Part shown: piece after piece, positions 2,964-9,127 of the stretch
How the letters are laid out: every line of letters begins with the position of its first letter
How positions within the stretch are numbered: position 1 is the stretch's first letter
Assembly (NCBI RefSeq): GCF_002310835.1
Contig: NZ_CP011041.1
Location: forward strand, 540,001 to 572,000
Direction of reading: 5' to 3'
Source: Pseudoalteromonas tetraodonis
GTDB taxonomy: Bacteria; Pseudomonadota; Gammaproteobacteria; Enterobacterales; Alteromonadaceae
DNA: 32,000 nucleotides
The notes under the pieces: generated by a model
What the model was told of the DNA's origin: nothing
What the model saw: the letters and a program-made list of their open reading frames with translations, nothing else
The model's database searches: none
Translations under genes and position numbers: made by a program

Positions 2964-3001
2964 ATAAATTTCGGACTTTCACTCATGCATGAGTTAGTCT
3001 A

Positions 3002-3312
3002 GGGTCTGTTGACCTTTGCGGATTACAATTTGTTCAAACTAGGGGCGGTTTAATCGCGGCGCGAGGTTTGTAACCTAGTGGGCTAAGTCAAAACTGAGCA
3101 AAGCTTCCGCGTCCTGCTCACGCCCCTTACCTACATCCATGTAGGCAACAAAGAGTAAATCGCCCCTAGGCAGAACCCGAAGGGCAGTGCCTGTTTGGCA
3201 TTGATGCTGCGTTATCGCCTATTTATGGGGAATAACCACATCACATATGCTTTACCTTGGCTAAATACCAAACAGACTGCTGCAAATTTAACTTTGAAAG
3301 GTCAACAGATCC
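3002..3312. mobile_element. 311-bp MITE-like element, copy A (terminal inverted repeats, TA target-site duplication)
   Basis: Begins GGGTCTGTTGACCTTT and ends AAAGGTCAACAGATCC. The inverted repeats continue imperfectly for about 30 bp. TA flanks both ends (3000-3001 and 3313-3314). It has no ORF. A near-identical copy lies at 8122-8432 at constant offset 5120, with about 24 substitutions and no indels by manual alignment. Confidence 0.75.
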
Positions 3313-3343
3313 TAACCCCCTATTAAATAAAAAGGAAAGTCAC

Positions 3344-3709
3344 GTGGCATTTAGTGCAGACGAGTTAACCGAGCAGCTGATCAAACTAGAGTGTAGAAGT
3401 AACTTTAAAATAAAAAACATAGCTGAGTATATGCTAGTAAACTCTAAAGAGGCGTTTTATACCCATGCTGAAGCAGGTAAAGGTAAAATTGTGATCCGCC
3501 CGGCATTTGAAGTGTTTAGCGATGACTTTACTGATATTGATGGGGTTGTGCGTACTCAAGGCTATTTTCATAGCAGTGAAATGACCCGTTTTCCTACCCG
3601 TATTTATAAAAGTACGCAGCCTATTCATTATGGTGTCGCTTTTAAAATTAACTCTGAACAAGCGGCAAAAGAGTTTATAGCTAAGCTAACGATGATTATT
3701 GGCGGTTAA
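3344..3709 (+). CDS. hypothetical protein (about 121 aa from GTG 3344)
   Basis: The ORF track lists 3257..3709, but its TTG start and first 19 codons lie inside MITE copy A. An in-frame GTG at 3344 is preceded by AAAGGAAAG (3331-3339) at good spacing. I recognise no family motif. Confidence 0.45.
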   Translation: MAFSADELTEQLIKLECRSNFKIKNIAEYMLVNSKEAFYTHAEAGKGKIVIRPAFEVFSDDFTDIDGVVRTQGYFHSSEMTRFPTRIYKSTQPIHYGVAFKINSEQAAKEFIAKLTMIIGG

Positions 3710-3982: not shown

Positions 3983-6556
3983 TTATTTGCTATTTAAAAA
4001 GCTATTGACTGATTTCAGTTCACGGTTTTTAAGTGCAATACAGTCATTGGTACTCTCTGCAAGTTTACTTAATGTACGCGCATAACCGGGTACAGCTTCC
4101 AGTTTAGCGTCAAAGAAACTTTGCGTTGTAGCTAAACTGTCAGCGTCACAGCTGGCGGTAGTAAAGTAAGGTAAGTTTGGCACAAAAAATGGTGGCAAGC
4201 TTGCTGTTACTTTATCGTAGTTGTTATAAATCCAATCAATAAACAGTGCTTGGCGTTCATCGGTGTAACTTTGACCCGATAAAATAGTACGCATATCAGA
4301 AGCCGTTACTTCGTCTGTTAAGCTATACGCCAGTACCGCTTTTTGTAGTTCAGGTTTACCAAAGTAACCCATTGCTGCCAGCATATTGGTACGCACTTGT
4401 GGATCTTTGGTGGTTTTAAAGGTTGTCATAAACTGATCTAGCAACGCCTTATCCCCATGAAAAGCCGCAAGACGTAAATAAGTACCTGCTAAATAAGGAT
4501 CTACCTTTTGTGGATCGTTTAAGTAAGCTTGTGTTTGCTGTTTGGCTTTATTGATCACATTTTTATCTTCACCATCAAACCCTAAGCGTGATACCACCGC
4601 GGCACGAAGTTGAGCTACTGCGCCATCTTCGCCCATTTTTGCTTCTAGGCCATATTTTTTAGCGGCAGGCATCACCGCATTTTGAATAAACGTAGGCCAT
4701 AAATCTTTATTGCTATCGTCTTTAAAAGTACGCTGCTGTGACGCTAAATAACCTAAAGCAGTATTAGCAACACGCGGATGACTATCGCTGGCAAATACTT
4801 CAAGCGTTTGCATTAATTTAGCCGCTGAAATGACACCGGCATCAAGTAGGGCATCTGTTGCCGATAATAGGGCTAAGCGTTCACGGTCGTTTAATACCCT
4901 AGCTGCATTATCTATTAACGCATTAAATTGCGCATCATCCATTACCCAACGGTAATAACCTAGCGCGCCTTGATCTGGATAAATCCACTCTGGTTCAAAG
5001 TCTAATGCTAGCGTTTGGCTTTGTTTATTTAATAATACATTGGCTGTTTGTACTTTATCGCCAGCACCATATTTAATCGCAACCGGTACATTCCACAGTT
5101 GAGCAGGGGCTTCAACACCGGCATTGGCAAAACGACTTTGCGAAATCGTAATGCTTTTACCTTGCTGCTTAACGTTAATTAGCGGGAATGACGACTGTTC
5201 AATAAACGATTTTAAAACGCTCGCTACATCTTTATTTGAAGCCTTACCAAGTGCTTCCCATAAATCGGCAGCTTCTGCATTTTTATAGGAGAATTCTTTT
5301 AAGTAGTTCTGAATACCAGCTTGAAATGCCTCTTCGCCAATCCAGTTTTCAACCATCGCCAGTACTGAGCTGCCTTTGCTGTAGGCAAGGCCTAAACCGT
5401 CCATAATATCGGCTTCGGTTTTAATTGGTTTACGAATTGGCTTAGTGCTTAAACGTGCATCTAACGCCATTACGTTGTTTTGTGGTAAATCTAGGTGTGA
5501 TTCAAACTCAGGATTAAGCTGCTTAGTAATTTTTGCCGCCATCCAGCTTGCAAACGCCTCGTTTAACCATAAGTCGTTCCACCACTTCATAGTCACTAAG
5601 TTACCGTACCATTGGTGAGCTAATTCATGGGCAATAATAGAGACATTACGTTGTTTTTTACTACGCGTTGCAGCTTCTAAATCAACCAGAAGAATATCTT
5701 CGCGGTAAGTCACTAAGCCTGAGTTTTCCATAGCGCCAAACGGAAACTCTGGAACAGCCACTGAATCTAGCTTTTTATATACATAAGGAATACCAAAGTA
5801 CTCTTCAAGTGCGCCCAGTACTTTAGGCATGTTCTCTTTTGCATATTGCGCTAAATGAATTTTACCTTGTGGGGTGATCACACGCCCAGGAATAGGCATG
5901 CCTTTAATTTCTAGCTCTTCAAATGGACCTACAGCCATAGCCACTAAGTAAGATGGAATTGGTGGCGTTTTATCAAAGTAATGGGTGGTCATATCGCCAT
6001 TCACCGTCGTTTTTAGCTCAGGTGTATTTGAATACACTTTTTGTGAGGTGGGGGCGGTAATGGTTAACTGAAACGGAATTTTATAGCTTGGTTCGTCAAA
6101 CACCGGAAATGCACGGCGCGCATCACTCATTTCAAATTGCGTGAACAAGTACGGAACGCCTTGATCTAGGGTTTTATATAACCCCACACTCTGGCGGTTA
6201 TAAGGCGCTGAAAAATCTATTTTTAAGGTGTATTTACCTGGCTGAATTTGCTCTTCACAGCTAAATTTAACTTTACCTGTTTTAAGCATTTCGCTGTTTA
6301 AATCACAGTTTTGCTCACCTAGGAGTTGCACCATTTTAGTTGCATAATCAACACCATTGAGCTCAATGTAGTGTGTTGGTTTGAGCACTTCTAAGCTGAT
6401 CTCGGTCATTCCTGCAAAGGTATCCTGACTTGGGTCGAGCGTTAAAGCGACTTTTTGTGAACTTGGCTTTGCGAGTTTTTCAATGACGAATTCGTTAGCG
6501 TGAGCAGCATTCATCGCAAGCGCAACGCTCACGGTTAAGAGGCTTTTTAAAAACAT
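3983..6556 (-). CDS. secreted M1-family zinc aminopeptidase (aminopeptidase N-like)
   Basis: 857 aa. N-terminal signal peptide MFLKSLLTVSVALAMNAAHA. GAMEN exopeptidase motif and HELAHQW...WLNEAF, which is the HEXXH-18-E zinc site. Confidence 0.9.
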   Translation of the reverse strand: MFLKSLLTVSVALAMNAAHANEFVIEKLAKPSSQKVALTLDPSQDTFAGMTEISLEVLKPTHYIELNGVDYATKMVQLLGEQNCDLNSEMLKTGKVKFSCEEQIQPGKYTLKIDFSAPYNRQSVGLYKTLDQGVPYLFTQFEMSDARRAFPVFDEPSYKIPFQLTITAPTSQKVYSNTPELKTTVNGDMTTHYFDKTPPIPSYLVAMAVGPFEELEIKGMPIPGRVITPQGKIHLAQYAKENMPKVLGALEEYFGIPYVYKKLDSVAVPEFPFGAMENSGLVTYREDILLVDLEAATRSKKQRNVSIIAHELAHQWYGNLVTMKWWNDLWLNEAFASWMAAKITKQLNPEFESHLDLPQNNVMALDARLSTKPIRKPIKTEADIMDGLGLAYSKGSSVLAMVENWIGEEAFQAGIQNYLKEFSYKNAEAADLWEALGKASNKDVASVLKSFIEQSSFPLINVKQQGKSITISQSRFANAGVEAPAQLWNVPVAIKYGAGDKVQTANVLLNKQSQTLALDFEPEWIYPDQGALGYYRWVMDDAQFNALIDNAARVLNDRERLALLSATDALLDAGVISAAKLMQTLEVFASDSHPRVANTALGYLASQQRTFKDDSNKDLWPTFIQNAVMPAAKKYGLEAKMGEDGAVAQLRAAVVSRLGFDGEDKNVINKAKQQTQAYLNDPQKVDPYLAGTYLRLAAFHGDKALLDQFMTTFKTTKDPQVRTNMLAAMGYFGKPELQKAVLAYSLTDEVTASDMRTILSGQSYTDERQALFIDWIYNNYDKVTASLPPFFVPNLPYFTTASCDADSLATTQSFFDAKLEAVPGYARTLSKLAESTNDCIALKNRELKSVNSFLNSK

Positions 6557-6670: not shown

Positions 6671-7390
6671 TCAGTGGCTATCTCGGGCTAAAAACCGCTG
6701 CCAATGAATATGGGAATTGATAACCCGGATCTGTTGTAGTACCTTATTTAACAAGGCTATATCGTTAAAGTTATCATGAGGGTAATCATTAAAGCCCATT
6801 AAATAATTAAAGCAGTCTTTGTTGCCTGCTTGCAGGGCATAAATACGAATTTGCTGTTCAAAGTTAAGCCGTAAGCTACTAATGGCGGTTTTCATACCGA
6901 GTTGATCCACCGAAGGAATTGCACATTTTTGCAAATACCCCGCGCGTTCACCTTCTCCCGAAAACCATATGCGCACTTTTTCGCTATAGCGCCCTGTTTT
7001 AGCAGGAAGATCGAACATTAAACGGGAGTGATTTTGTGCTTTTACATAAGCTAAATAGTCATTAAACCCAGCGCTAATAAGGGCGTGATGAACAGGCACT
7101 AAACGTGGCTTAATTTTACCGTGGGTATGAAAACTAAAACAGAGAATATTATTTTTAAGTATTAGGTCATCAAGGGTTAAGCAGCCAATTTCATCACTGT
7201 AAGCGCCACTGTAATAAGCAATTAAGGGCAGCCAAAAATGCCAGTGTTTAGCTTGTTCGCGGGCAAGCCGTGTATCACTATAAATATATCCGTTATAGAG
7301 CGTATGCAGCTCCATAGCTGAAAATGGACGACGACCAAGATGGGTTTTCAACGTATTACCTTGACAGTTTTTATTATTTTTATACCCCAA
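6671..7390 (-). CDS. tyrosine-recombinase (phage integrase) catalytic-domain-like protein, N-terminally truncated with substituted active-site residues; possible remnant
   Basis: WLPLIAYYSGAYSDEIGCLTLDDL, PRLVPVHHALISAGFNDYL, RLMFDL, ISSLRLNFEQQI and LMGFNDY parallel the conserved blocks of the integrase C-terminal domain (GARxxE, R.VPIH, HSxRHT, GH). The first Arg, both His positions and the GH His are replaced. The tracked start is a TTG buried in a 10-bp hairpin (7386-7412). No N-terminal DNA-binding domain is present. Confidence 0.45.
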   Translation of the reverse strand: MGYKNNKNCQGNTLKTHLGRRPFSAMELHTLYNGYIYSDTRLAREQAKHWHFWLPLIAYYSGAYSDEIGCLTLDDLILKNNILCFSFHTHGKIKPRLVPVHHALISAGFNDYLAYVKAQNHSRLMFDLPAKTGRYSEKVRIWFSGEGERAGYLQKCAIPSVDQLGMKTAISSLRLNFEQQIRIYALQAGNKDCFNYLMGFNDYPHDNFNDIALLNKVLQQIRVINSHIHWQRFLARDSH

Positions 7391-7440
7391 CTAACCGTTG
7401 CTGTTAGTTGGGATAATGTCAGCGAACTAACGCCTAAAAC

Positions 7441-7791
7441 TTATTCGCTTAGCGCGCGAGCTAAACCAACTGGTTCAATTTCTACACACACCTGATCGTC
7501 ATTCCAATTTAAACCCACTAATGCATCATCAGATTTTAGGTCTTCAACCCAATCATCTAAAAACTCATCAAGGTTTATTTCTACAGGGCTGTAGTCTTGC
7601 CACTCTTCTTTACATTGTGCTTGTGCTGCGTCTTGTGATTCCCACAGTAAAAGTACATCGGTGTCGTCAAACTGATTTGACTCACATACAACAAAGCCAC
7701 CATCATCGGCACCCAGTGCCCAGATCTGCTCACTAACACGTACTTTTTCTACAAAGCTAACTAGTTGTGATTCAATTTCGATATCGCTCAT
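7441..7791 (-). CDS. small acidic cytoplasmic protein of unknown function (possibly DUF2750-like)
   Basis: 116-aa ORF, very Asp/Glu-rich. It starts 11 nt downstream of the GST stop on the same strand. The DUF2750 assignment is a weak recollection only. Confidence 0.5.
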   Translation of the reverse strand: MSDIEIESQLVSFVEKVRVSEQIWALGADDGGFVVCESNQFDDTDVLLLWESQDAAQAQCKEEWQDYSPVEINLDEFLDDWVEDLKSDDALVGLNWNDDQVCVEIEPVGLARALSE

Positions 7792-7802
7792 GTATCCACC
7801 TT

Positions 7803-8700
7803 TTAAAATTTAAGTCGAGGGTTGGTATTTTTAGCCGCTTGACGCTGACTAAACGCTTCATAAAACTTAACTAATTGCGGCTGCGCGCTAAAATCAGTGA
7901 GTTCACGAAAGCATATCCAATCAAGTAAGCAGTATAAACTGATGTTGAGGCATTCACAGCTTTTAAATTCATCATCGCATAAATGATCATTTAAATAGTG
8001 TAATGTTTGCGCAACTCGCTCATTTTGCAGATTAAAAAACAGCTTATCGGCTTGCGTATCAAATCCAGAACGTTGGCATAACAGTAATTCAACGAATGAA
8101 TCATTGCAGACATTGATGCTAGGGCCTGTTGACCTTTACGGATTAAAATTTCTTCAAACTAGGGGCGATTTAATCGCGGCGCGAGGTTTGTAACCTAGTG
8201 GGCTAAGTAAAAACCGAGCAAAGCTTCCGCGTCCTGCTCACGCCCCTTACCTACATCCATGTAGGCAACAAAGAGTTAATCGCCCCTAGGCAGAACCCTT
8301 CGGGCAGCGCCTGTTTGGCATTAATGCTACGTTATCGCCTATTTATGGGGAATAACCACACCACATAGGCTCTGCCTTGCCTAAATACCAAACAGACTGC
8401 TGTAAATTTAACCTTGAAAGATCAACAGGCCCTAATTAAAAAGTGCTCTTGAGGCCATGTAAGTGGGGGTTGCTGGGTTTTTTCAAGTAAATAACGCAGT
8501 ATGGTATTTGAATCACTTAGGGTAAGCGTGTCATCGACCAATATAGGAATTTTGGCTGCTGGATTTTTTGTGACCACCAACGGCCGATCGTCTTTAGAAA
8601 AAATATCGAGATTAATAAATTCAAGCGCACAATTGTTTTGTTGTGCCCAGATTCTAATACGGCGAACATAAGGGGAAGGAATAGAGCCAAATAGTTGCAT
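7803..8700 (-). pseudogene. YibF-like glutathione S-transferase gene interrupted by MITE copy B
   Basis: The N-terminal fragment (ORF 8422..8700) reads MQLFGSIPSPYVRRIRIW...KIPILVDD...SNTILRYL, a thioredoxin-like GST N-domain. It runs into the element and stops after 3 element-derived codons. A C-terminal fragment with no Met (8119 down to stop 7805-7803) reads SINVCNDSFVELLL...LLDWICFRELTDFSAQPQLVKFYEAFSQRQAAKNT. Deleting 8122-8432 plus one TA joins the two in frame (585 nt, 194 aa plus stop). Confidence 0.85.
8122..8432. mobile_element. 311-bp MITE-like element, copy B (inserted in the GST gene)
   Basis: Begins GGGCCTGTTGACCTTT and ends AAAGATCAACAGGCCC. TA lies at 8120-8121 and 8433-8434. 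It has the same orientation as copy A and about 92% identity to it. Confidence 0.8.
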
Positions 8701-8723
8701 AATGGGGCTTTTGCCAACTCCAC

Positions 8724-8752
8724 ATAAATAAAAAGCCGCTGATGCGGCTTTA
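8724..8752 (-). terminator. rho-independent terminator downstream of ppiC
   Basis: The minus strand reads AAAGCCGC-ATCA-GCGGCTTT followed by TTATTTAT. It lies 18 nt after the ppiC stop. Confidence 0.7.
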
Positions 8753-8769
8753 TTAATAAATCGATTTAC

Positions 8770-9051
8770 TTACTCTGAGCGGCTGGTTATTTCTAATAAA
8801 TGGTAACCAAACTGTGTTTGTACAGGGCCTTGTACTTGATTTAGCGGCGCTGAAAATACCACCTTGTCAAATTCAGGCACCATCATACCTGGGCCAAACT
8901 CACCTAATGCACCACCATCTTGACCTGATGGACAATTAGAGTGCAGTTTAGCGAGTTCTGCAAAGTCTTCACCTTGCTCAATTTTATCTTTAAGGTCTAA
9001 ACATTGTGCTTCACTGTCTACGAGTATGTGCCTTGCACTTGCAACTGCCAT
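8770..9051 (-). CDS. ppiC: peptidyl-prolyl cis-trans isomerase C (parvulin)
   Basis: 93 aa. ARHILV, GGALGEFGPGMMVPEFD and FGYHLLEI are typical PpiC/parvulin blocks, and the size matches. Confidence 0.9.
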   Translation of the reverse strand: MAVASARHILVDSEAQCLDLKDKIEQGEDFAELAKLHSNCPSGQDGGALGEFGPGMMVPEFDKVVFSAPLNQVQGPVQTQFGYHLLEITSRSE

Positions 9052-9127
9052 AAGTTCTCCTACCTGTAAGTTTAGTTTTTTAAATTTGATAGCAACATCT
9101 TAGTAAGGTTAAACTGAAAACACAAAG

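Follow-up and report, generated by a model that had tools for sequence, protein, structure and literature searches.

Bacterial MITEs (miniature inverted-repeat transposable elements) that duplicate the dinucleotide TA, among them RUP in Streptococcus pneumoniae and Correia elements in Neisseria, are credited to transposases of the IS630/Tc1-mariner type. Canonical Tc1/mariner footprints retain both TA copies and a few terminal bases of each end. A further route of loss is the 'nearly precise excision' of Tn10 and Tn5, reportedly described by Foster et al. in 1981, a transposase-independent deletion between short direct repeats that is promoted by the inverted repeats of the element. Tc1/mariner/IS630 elements insert at TA only, duplicate it, and transpose through a cut-and-paste reaction that leaves a double-strand break (PMC2170065); a preference of IS630 for CTAG is given in the same source and its reference list, which includes Tenzen & Ohtsubo 1991. 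Here we analysed 32,000 nt of the Pseudoalteromonas tetraodonis chromosome (NZ_CP011041.1, positions 540,001 to 572,000; hereafter the window, whose own numbering we use). We consider it very likely that a TA-duplicating, non-autonomous MITE, inserted at CTAG within the gene of a YibF-like glutathione S-transferase (GST), has knocked this gene out, is polymorphic among relatives, and has been lost again with a scar in at least one strain. Alleles carrying the element are called filled, those with the uninterrupted site empty, and those retaining a footprint of the lost element scar alleles.

An initial annotation of the window had proposed that a MITE, referred to as copy B, splits a GST gene and that its removal in silico restores a perfect open reading frame (ORF). 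Read on the minus strand, the upstream junction is ...CAC TTT TTA ATT A/GG GCC TGT TGA... (slash, start of the element), with the last codons AGG, GCC and TGT and the TGA stop inside the element, and the resulting 92-aa stub ends in ...QEHFLI-RAC-stop. The remaining part of the gene has no ATG, GTG or TTG start in 8119..7803, which is why this frame is missing from the ORF list. Translation halts three codons into the element, which leaves an N-domain stub of 92 aa and a C-domain remnant that cannot be translated; the GST gene is therefore a pseudogene in this genome.

Joining 8700..8433 to 8119..7803 in silico yields 585 nt, comprising 194 codons and a TAA, with no internal stop. The insertion point is a CTAG site past base 1 of codon 90, within helix alpha4 (residues 82-106 in an AlphaFold model), and the GST stop at 7803-7805 is followed by 11 nt (AAGGTGGATAC) before the ATG at 7791 of the next gene. 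The coordinates in the initial annotation, covering the 92-aa ORF, the C-terminal half without a start, the 585-nt join and the 11-nt gap, are all correct, and the element boundaries it gave, with TA on both sides, are exact to the base. The description of a perfect ORF holds in that the joined 585 nt are open and encode 194 aa, but codons 89 and 93 differ from the functional allele. Codon 89 is ATT (Ile) in the restored ORF versus ACT (Thr) in intact relatives, and codon 93 is GTC (Val) versus GCC (Ala) in relatives; at least 90% of the family have this Ala93. Ala93Val results from a C-to-T change at 8110 and is private to SM9913-type sequences. The T at 8435, one base outside the TA, is present in all filled and both scar alleles examined as DNA, and in no empty allele.

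The reconstructed protein matched the Pfam models GST_N_3 (E 3.5e-12), GST_N (1.3e-8) and GST_N_2 (2e-8), all past their cut-offs, and the same Pfam search gave no match to a C-domain (GST_C). It had 278 protein matches, and many of the best are Pseudoalteromonas GST family proteins of 190-194 aa at 96-100% query coverage, the best match reaching 88% identity over 100% of the query. A profile of 28 full-length homologues aligned over positions 1-191 with the GST 3tot and over 1-190 with E. coli YibF (3r2q). The AlphaFold model (pLDDT 94.1, pTM 0.90) has an N-domain at 1-74, a linker and helices at 82-187, and its best PDB match by Foldseek is again YibF 3r2q, with a TM of 0.84. The GST identity proposed at the outset is thus borne out by the GST_N_3 match, the full-length alignment with intact 194-aa Pseudoalteromonas GSTs and the YibF-like predicted fold. 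The more specific label 'YibF-type' is apt for fold and profile, but the NCBIfam YibF equivalog model (PRK10357) scored 54.7 bits against a cut-off of 181. The protein shares with E. coli YibF its full-length fold, the profile alignment and an N-terminal SP[YF] motif, and differs from it in having only 24% identity, in missing the equivalog cut-off, and in a C-domain that Pfam does not detect. The encoded protein is YibF-like and not a YibF equivalog.

Copy B is 311 bp long, below the limit of about 600 bp for MITEs, and an ORF scan of 8122-8432 found no ORF of at least 30 aa and no transposase ORF. Its ends are GGGCCTGTTGA(T/C)C; in the orientation of the gene it begins with GGGCCTGTTGATC at 8432 and finishes with GGTCAACAGGCCC at 8122. 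A repeat search placed its inverted-repeat arms at 31 nt including the TA, with 81% complementarity, and these terminal repeats are conserved across 93 family copies. The terminal 13-mer, allowing at most 2 mismatches, occurs 6 times in the window versus 0.55 times expected by chance, and a second, intergenic copy (copy A) is 93-94% identical to copy B and in the same orientation. The coordinates of these features are collected in Table 1.

Table 1. Features of the interrupted GST locus and of the second MITE copy, in window coordinates.
Feature	Position	Strand	Description or basis
Truncated ORF, 92 aa and stop	8422..8700	-	Whole thioredoxin-like N-domain, linker, first two turns of helix alpha4, then R-A-C from the MITE
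C-terminal GST part	7803..8119	-	Last two bases of codon 90 to codon 194 and TAA; open
Flank substitution Thr89 to Ile	8435	-	T here versus C in empty alleles
MITE copy B	8122..8432	- (stabler-folding strand, which is the GST sense strand)	Splits the GST gene; filled/empty comparison and 93 copies
Upstream terminal inverted repeat (gene orientation), GGGCCTGTTGATCTTTCAAGGTTAAATTT	8404..8432		Repeat pairing and family alignment
Downstream terminal inverted repeat (gene orientation)	8122..8150		Repeat pairing
TA duplication, upstream copy	8433..8434		T is base 3 of codon 89, A is base 1 of codon 90
TA duplication, downstream copy	8120..8121		Empty site with a single TA
GCCTG in upstream inverted repeat (element positions 3-7)	8426..8430	-	First endpoint of the 319-bp deletion (scar alleles)
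Second GCCTG-type repeat	8107..8111	-	Second deletion endpoint; GTCTG in the window, GCCTG in other filled alleles
MITE copy A	3002..3312	-	TA at 3000-3001 and 3313-3314; intergenic
DUF2750 gene	7441..7791	-	Pfam PF11042, E 7.9e-32; own ribosome-binding site (Shine-Dalgarno)

Comparison with relatives established the insertion as a presence/absence polymorphism. In the P. tetraodonis contig JBNNGM010000006.1 (L143) the flanks match the window at 99% identity, with 49 differences in 5300 nt, which is as close as the filled alleles are among themselves; this contig encodes an uninterrupted 194-aa GST (WP_427683894.1) whose site reads TTTTTTAAC-TA-GCATCAATGCCTGC, that is, AAC-TA-GCAT. Other empty sites with a single TA were found in L004 and in the more distant L002 and L003 (~88%). 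Filled alleles read ...TTA[element]TAGCAT at the junction versus ...CTAGCAT in all four of these sequences. The intact GST of about 194 aa with a single TA that the initial annotation had expected at the orthologous locus is thus present in L143, and likewise in L002 and L003, and its identification of a genuine MITE with TA duplication agrees with the inverted repeats, the many copies and the empty sites. L004 lacks 1 nt in a run of six Ts, probably through misassembly or a change private to it; once this is corrected, its 194-aa sequence is exactly that of P. tetraodonis.

The filled allele is common. It is present in the complete genomes CP001796.1, CP076084.1 and CP152390.1 and in several metagenome contigs, and the exact 92-aa stub occurs in 102 contigs and 254 blocks of the assembly collection; further 92-aa variants of the stub come from strains APC 3250, ND6B, S4741, 2CM36K and SCSIO_11900. 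A scan of metagenomes with a pattern spanning the junction flanks returned one contig, L140, and is uninformative on allele frequencies. The insertion is thus a polymorphism within a clade of at most 1% divergence, in which the filled allele is common and the intact ancestral allele survives in some strains. An earlier inference from eight filled alleles, that the insertion predates the clade, was dropped once an empty-site genome with equally close flanks appeared. The suggestion that the insertion is recent fits its still being polymorphic within this clade, but sits less well with an allele found in more than 100 contigs that already has derived forms, namely length variants, frameshifted stubs, Ser9Phe and scar alleles.

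Three lengths of the element occupy this one site: 264 nt in L132, 311 nt in the window and 359 nt in L140 (2031-2391). The 264-nt form lacks a 47-nt module bounded by GCAA repeats, and the L140 form has an extra 48-nt hairpin module. Copy A, 311 nt long in the window, is ~47 nt shorter (~264 nt) at the same module in L001. Together, the three lengths at one site and the variation of copy A indicate that the length classes of the family arise, at least partly, in place, which would occur by module loss or gene conversion.

In strain MQS005 (L137, WP_064662412.1) the flanks are 98.8-99.6% identical to the window and the element has been lost. The site reads TTTTTAATTA-GGGCCTG-CAATGATTC, keeping 7 nt of the element end, and the product is an open 192-aa frame containing ...FLIRACNDSF..., with ...FL-IRA-CNDS... 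in the scar protein versus ...FL-TSINA-CNDS... in the intact one. A GCCTG lies inside the upstream inverted repeat, and in the ancestral filled allele a second one stands 10 nt past the downstream element end. In at least one strain, a 319-bp deletion between these two 5-bp repeats has reopened the frame, leaving 7 nt of the element and removing 10 nt of flank (net, -6 nt). The starts of the GST and DUF2750 genes are 909 nt apart in filled alleles and 590 nt apart in the scar allele, and the difference of 319 nt equals the predicted loss. The metagenome contig L001 (product P0056) has this scar too, together with the loss of 1 nt at 18 nt downstream of it, and product P0135, seen as protein, has the same scar and frameshift. 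The scar alleles also carry the T at -1 (8435) that is otherwise exclusive to filled alleles, and they belong to the clade, at most 1% divergent, that holds the filled alleles.

The deletion probably arose by replication slippage across a hairpin of the paired inverted repeats, as in the nearly precise excision of Tn10. The endpoints are likewise short direct repeats (GCCTG twice), one of them inside an inverted repeat, a small remnant stays behind, and a long hairpin brings the two repeats close. Unlike the Tn10 and Tn5 events, the second repeat here lies in the flanking gene and not in the other inverted repeat, with a loss of 10 nt of host sequence, and the scar is a natural allele of wild strains and not a laboratory revertant; the likeness is one of sequence geometry.

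The element belongs to a large family that appears to be undescribed. Searching species-representative genomes with a 21-nt pattern that is invariant across eight aligned copies, we found at least 119 family stretches in genome contigs, mostly from Pseudoalteromonas (among the matches listed, P. neustonica, P. distincta, P. aliena, P. arctica, P. haloplanktis and further species) and in part from Thalassotalea and Catenovulum; PLSDB added 88 places across 20 records. The genome of P. neustonica PAMC 28425 is rich in copies. The 93 complete copies fall mainly into lengths of 264 nt (63 copies), 311 nt (17) and 359 nt (6), and their terminal bases, a first G and a last C, are invariant. TA flanks both ends in 68 of the 93. 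The base preceding the TA is C in 49 and T in 19 of these, and the base following it is G in 39 and A in 27, giving a YTAR consensus in which CTAG is the commonest target (30/68), followed by CTAA (17), TTAA (10) and TTAG (9). Positions 4-5 of the inverted repeats covary between the ends (TC/GA, CG/CG, CC/GG) and define subfamilies. Among 74 evaluable copies, a frame of 150 codons or more runs across the excised junction in just 4, which makes intragenic survivors like copy B exceptional.

Insertion at TA only, a 2-bp TA duplication and a preference for CTAG are the target properties of IS630/Tc1-mariner elements, and the family has all three. Going by the TA duplication and the YTAR/CTAG target, it would most probably be mobilised in trans by a transposase of this type. 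Like RUP and the Correia elements, its members are short and non-coding, have terminal inverted repeats and a strict TA duplication, and occur in many, mostly intergenic copies that occasionally disrupt a gene. They differ in being longer (264, 311 or 359 bp), in an interior conserved across genera with a branched, covariation-supported fold, in optional hairpin modules of 47-48 nt, and in that no matching autonomous insertion sequence (IS) was identified. A literature search found no description of a Pseudoalteromonas MITE of this family. Its abundance in Alteromonadales merits masking or annotation.

A search for TA-flanked inverted repeats 0.7-2.5 kb apart returned inverted MITE pairs only, and two such pairs, with members 1-2 kb apart (L098:1300-2700 and L103:5050-7090), are potential composite structures. 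Scanning 129 loci of 8 kb for unpaired or long-range repeat ends revealed no partner, a search for multi-copy ORFs as a partner returned nothing, and partial PLSDB matches in Vibrio and in strain CF6-2 had no transposase close by.

The two strands of the element fold with different stability. The predicted RNA fold energy of copy B is -134 kcal/mol on the minus strand (z -8.8) versus -106 on the plus strand (z -5.0), and the same strand is the stabler one in 86 of 89 copies, which are related and hence not independent; G-U pairs account for the consistent difference. A consensus fold of 30 diverse copies contains 65 pairs, 22 of them with compensatory changes, versus 10.3 ± 1.8 in shuffles and 2-10 in slid controls. 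It is conceivable, if rather improbable, that the family is a mobile structured module whose strand-specific fold, conserved from Pseudoalteromonas to Catenovulum, is itself under selection as RNA or as a single-stranded DNA hairpin, with the hairpin promoting near-precise deletion and making insertions reversible. If true, a gene like this GST could, within a single species, pass repeatedly through an intact, a knocked-out and an in-frame scarred state. Identity with a known ribozyme, intron or small RNA is unsupported, as Rfam gave no match anywhere in the window at gathering scores.

An internal hairpin of the element has a loop triplet (CCC-NNN-GGG) that is GAA in copy A (3179-3181) and TTC in copy B (8299-8301), and CTT, TTT and AAA in other family copies. 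The triplets of copies A and B are an exact inversion of each other, a pattern that reads as the signature of template switching at a quasi-palindrome.

Other origins of the scar, and other identities of the element, have to be set against this account. The MITE might have been cut out by a transposase, with resection and joining at the 5-bp microhomology in place of slippage. The family does show signs of mobility in its presence/absence polymorphism and TA duplications, cut-and-paste by Tc1/mariner/IS630 transposases leaves a double-strand break (PMC2170065), and the junction lies on microhomology. Yet only one end of the element is represented in the scar, by 7 nt, and the flank has lost one TA and another 8 bases. 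The deletion is bounded by exact 5-bp direct repeats where a long hairpin has its base, an arrangement classic for slippage, and no transposase gene was found in the scanned loci; we regard this route as unlikely. That the 192-aa allele never carried the MITE, and instead acquired a small in-frame insertion or deletion resembling the element end, we consider highly improbable. In its favour, only 7 nt are shared with the element, and the flank already contains GCCTG, which leaves only GG unexplained. Starting from the empty allele AACTAGCATCAATGCCTG, however, three changes would be needed (C replaced by T, CATCAAT lost and a G gained), whereas a single deletion suffices from the filled allele, and such an origin would leave unaccounted for both the T at -1, otherwise seen in filled alleles only, and a size difference from filled alleles of exactly 319 nt.

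As to the element itself, YTAR is also the target of IS5, and MITEPsy1 of Pseudomonas syringae, a bacterial MITE that duplicates CTAG or YTAA, was assigned to the IS5 family with a question mark (PMC3189936). The flanks in the window can be read as TTAG...CTAG, so the family might be of IS5 type with a 4-bp YTAR duplication. Such a duplication requires that the bases just outside the two TAs, before the left one and after the right one, agree with the element's own invariant terminal bases, C and G, but C...G is found in just 30 of the 68 TA-flanked copies, and the other 38 have T and/or A there (C/T in two) while the end bases stay invariant. These flank statistics rule out the 4-bp duplication, and an IS5-type origin is very unlikely. 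MITEPsy1 is comparable in its CTAG/YTAA target, and differs in its 100-nt length, 4-nt duplication and ends like those of the IS5-family element ISPsy2 (PMC3189936); the present family duplicates 2 nt. Finally, the very stable, covariation-supported fold on the GST sense strand, together with the openness of both gene halves in the window, could be taken to mean that the element is removed from the RNA or that both halves function, and that the GST gene is not a pseudogene. We give this almost no credence: Rfam has no match for 8050-8500 with E allowed up to 1, the insert of 313 nt is not a multiple of 3 and has a stop after 3 codons, the C-terminal half has no start codon, the remnants have a raised ratio of nonsynonymous to synonymous changes and a replaced invariant Ser9, and presence or absence of the element, with its target duplication, is a polymorphism of the DNA itself.

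Several points nevertheless weigh against our reading of an IS630-type MITE that knocked out the gene and was lost by slippage. Slippage is indistinguishable by sequence from transposase excision followed by resection and microhomology joining. By their flanks, the two scar contigs are not mutual closest relatives, which implies that the deletion recurred or that recombination moved the scar. Helix alpha4 of the scar protein lacks Ile91 and Asn92, both at least 90% conserved, and a reopened frame therefore need not mean restored function; the 192-aa product may be non-functional, and the later frameshift in L001 is consistent with this. No autonomous IS with matching ends turned up in ~1.1 Mb of loci, the transposase family being inferred from the target site alone. 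Lastly, the test of constraint on the GST remnants comprises 11 variable codons in total.

That test compared 5 nonsynonymous and 6 synonymous variable codons in the GST remnants within the clade with 4 nonsynonymous and 33 synonymous ones in the neighbouring genes (DUF2750 0/8, a 239-aa ORF 2/22, PpiC 2/3; Fisher p = 0.02). On these small numbers, the remnants are drifting under relaxed constraint. Ser9, invariant in the family and probably the catalytic Ser position of the SP[YF] motif, is replaced by Phe in three stub variants, and some stubs are frameshifted to 87-88 aa. In P. haloplanktis L138 (GCA_945859885.1, CAMAPB010000022.1; 3390-3600) an unrelated element of ~190 bp interrupts the orthologous GST at codon 133. 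Its 12-nt ends are perfect, CCTGAACTCTGG...CCAGAGTTCAGG, and it is flanked by a duplication of 7-8 bp (TATTTAA); 33 contigs encode the truncated product of 133 aa. This independent interruption, taken with the relaxed constraint, suggests that the GST is dispensable in Pseudoalteromonas.

A MITE that knocks out a non-essential gene is an ordinary phenomenon. What lifts this case slightly above routine is the abundant, structure-conserved and apparently undescribed MITE family, the three length forms at one site, and the series of empty, filled and footprint alleles. A single shallow clade holds the empty site, the insertion in three lengths, decaying stubs and a footprint that reopens the frame, and to our knowledge documented loss footprints of bacterial MITEs appear uncommon. 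The locus and the named strains (SM9913, filled; MQS005, scar; P. tetraodonis GCA_050268285.1, empty) are suited to measuring excision, polarity and the cost of the 2-residue scar. Public annotation lists the stub as a 92-aa 'glutathione S-transferase family protein'.

Downstream of the GST gene, all 8 polymorphisms of the DUF2750 gene within the clade are synonymous (0 nonsynonymous), and comparison with the empty-site genome gives 7 synonymous and 0 nonsynonymous. This purifying selection makes a crippling polar effect unlikely, and severe polarity of the insertion on the DUF2750 gene is accordingly improbable as far as polymorphism can tell. On the gene strand of the element and of the C-terminal remnant, a promoter and terminator consensus scan of 7400-9100 found no outward promoter-like site and nothing terminator-like, a result that is not decisive on polarity. 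In all related loci the DUF2750 gene is adjoined by the 239-aa ORF (6671-7390), which has no Pfam match and whose 22 synonymous versus 2 nonsynonymous changes mark it as a real gene. On the other side, a terminator-like hairpin with a T-run at 8732-8751 follows the ppiC-type gene, and the distance of only ~30 nt from it to the GST start at 8700 means that the GST promoter must be very compact or that read-through is needed.

Copy A ends 30 nt upstream of a GTG at 3344 that follows AGGAAAG and is the likely start of a gene extending on the plus strand to 3709, and copy A thus occupies the promoter region of that gene. The window is of the SM9913/P. tetraodonis chromosome type: it is fully identical to the JGI metagenome contig L130, and identical across 5169 nt around the GST gene to CP001796.1, chromosome 1 of Pseudoalteromonas sp. 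SM9913 (PMC6275029). Ten single-nucleotide polymorphisms relative to CP001796.1 cluster at 5513-5819, in ~300 nt of the aminopeptidase N gene next to 5.2 kb of identity; they set the window apart from SM9913 itself and look like a recombination tract.

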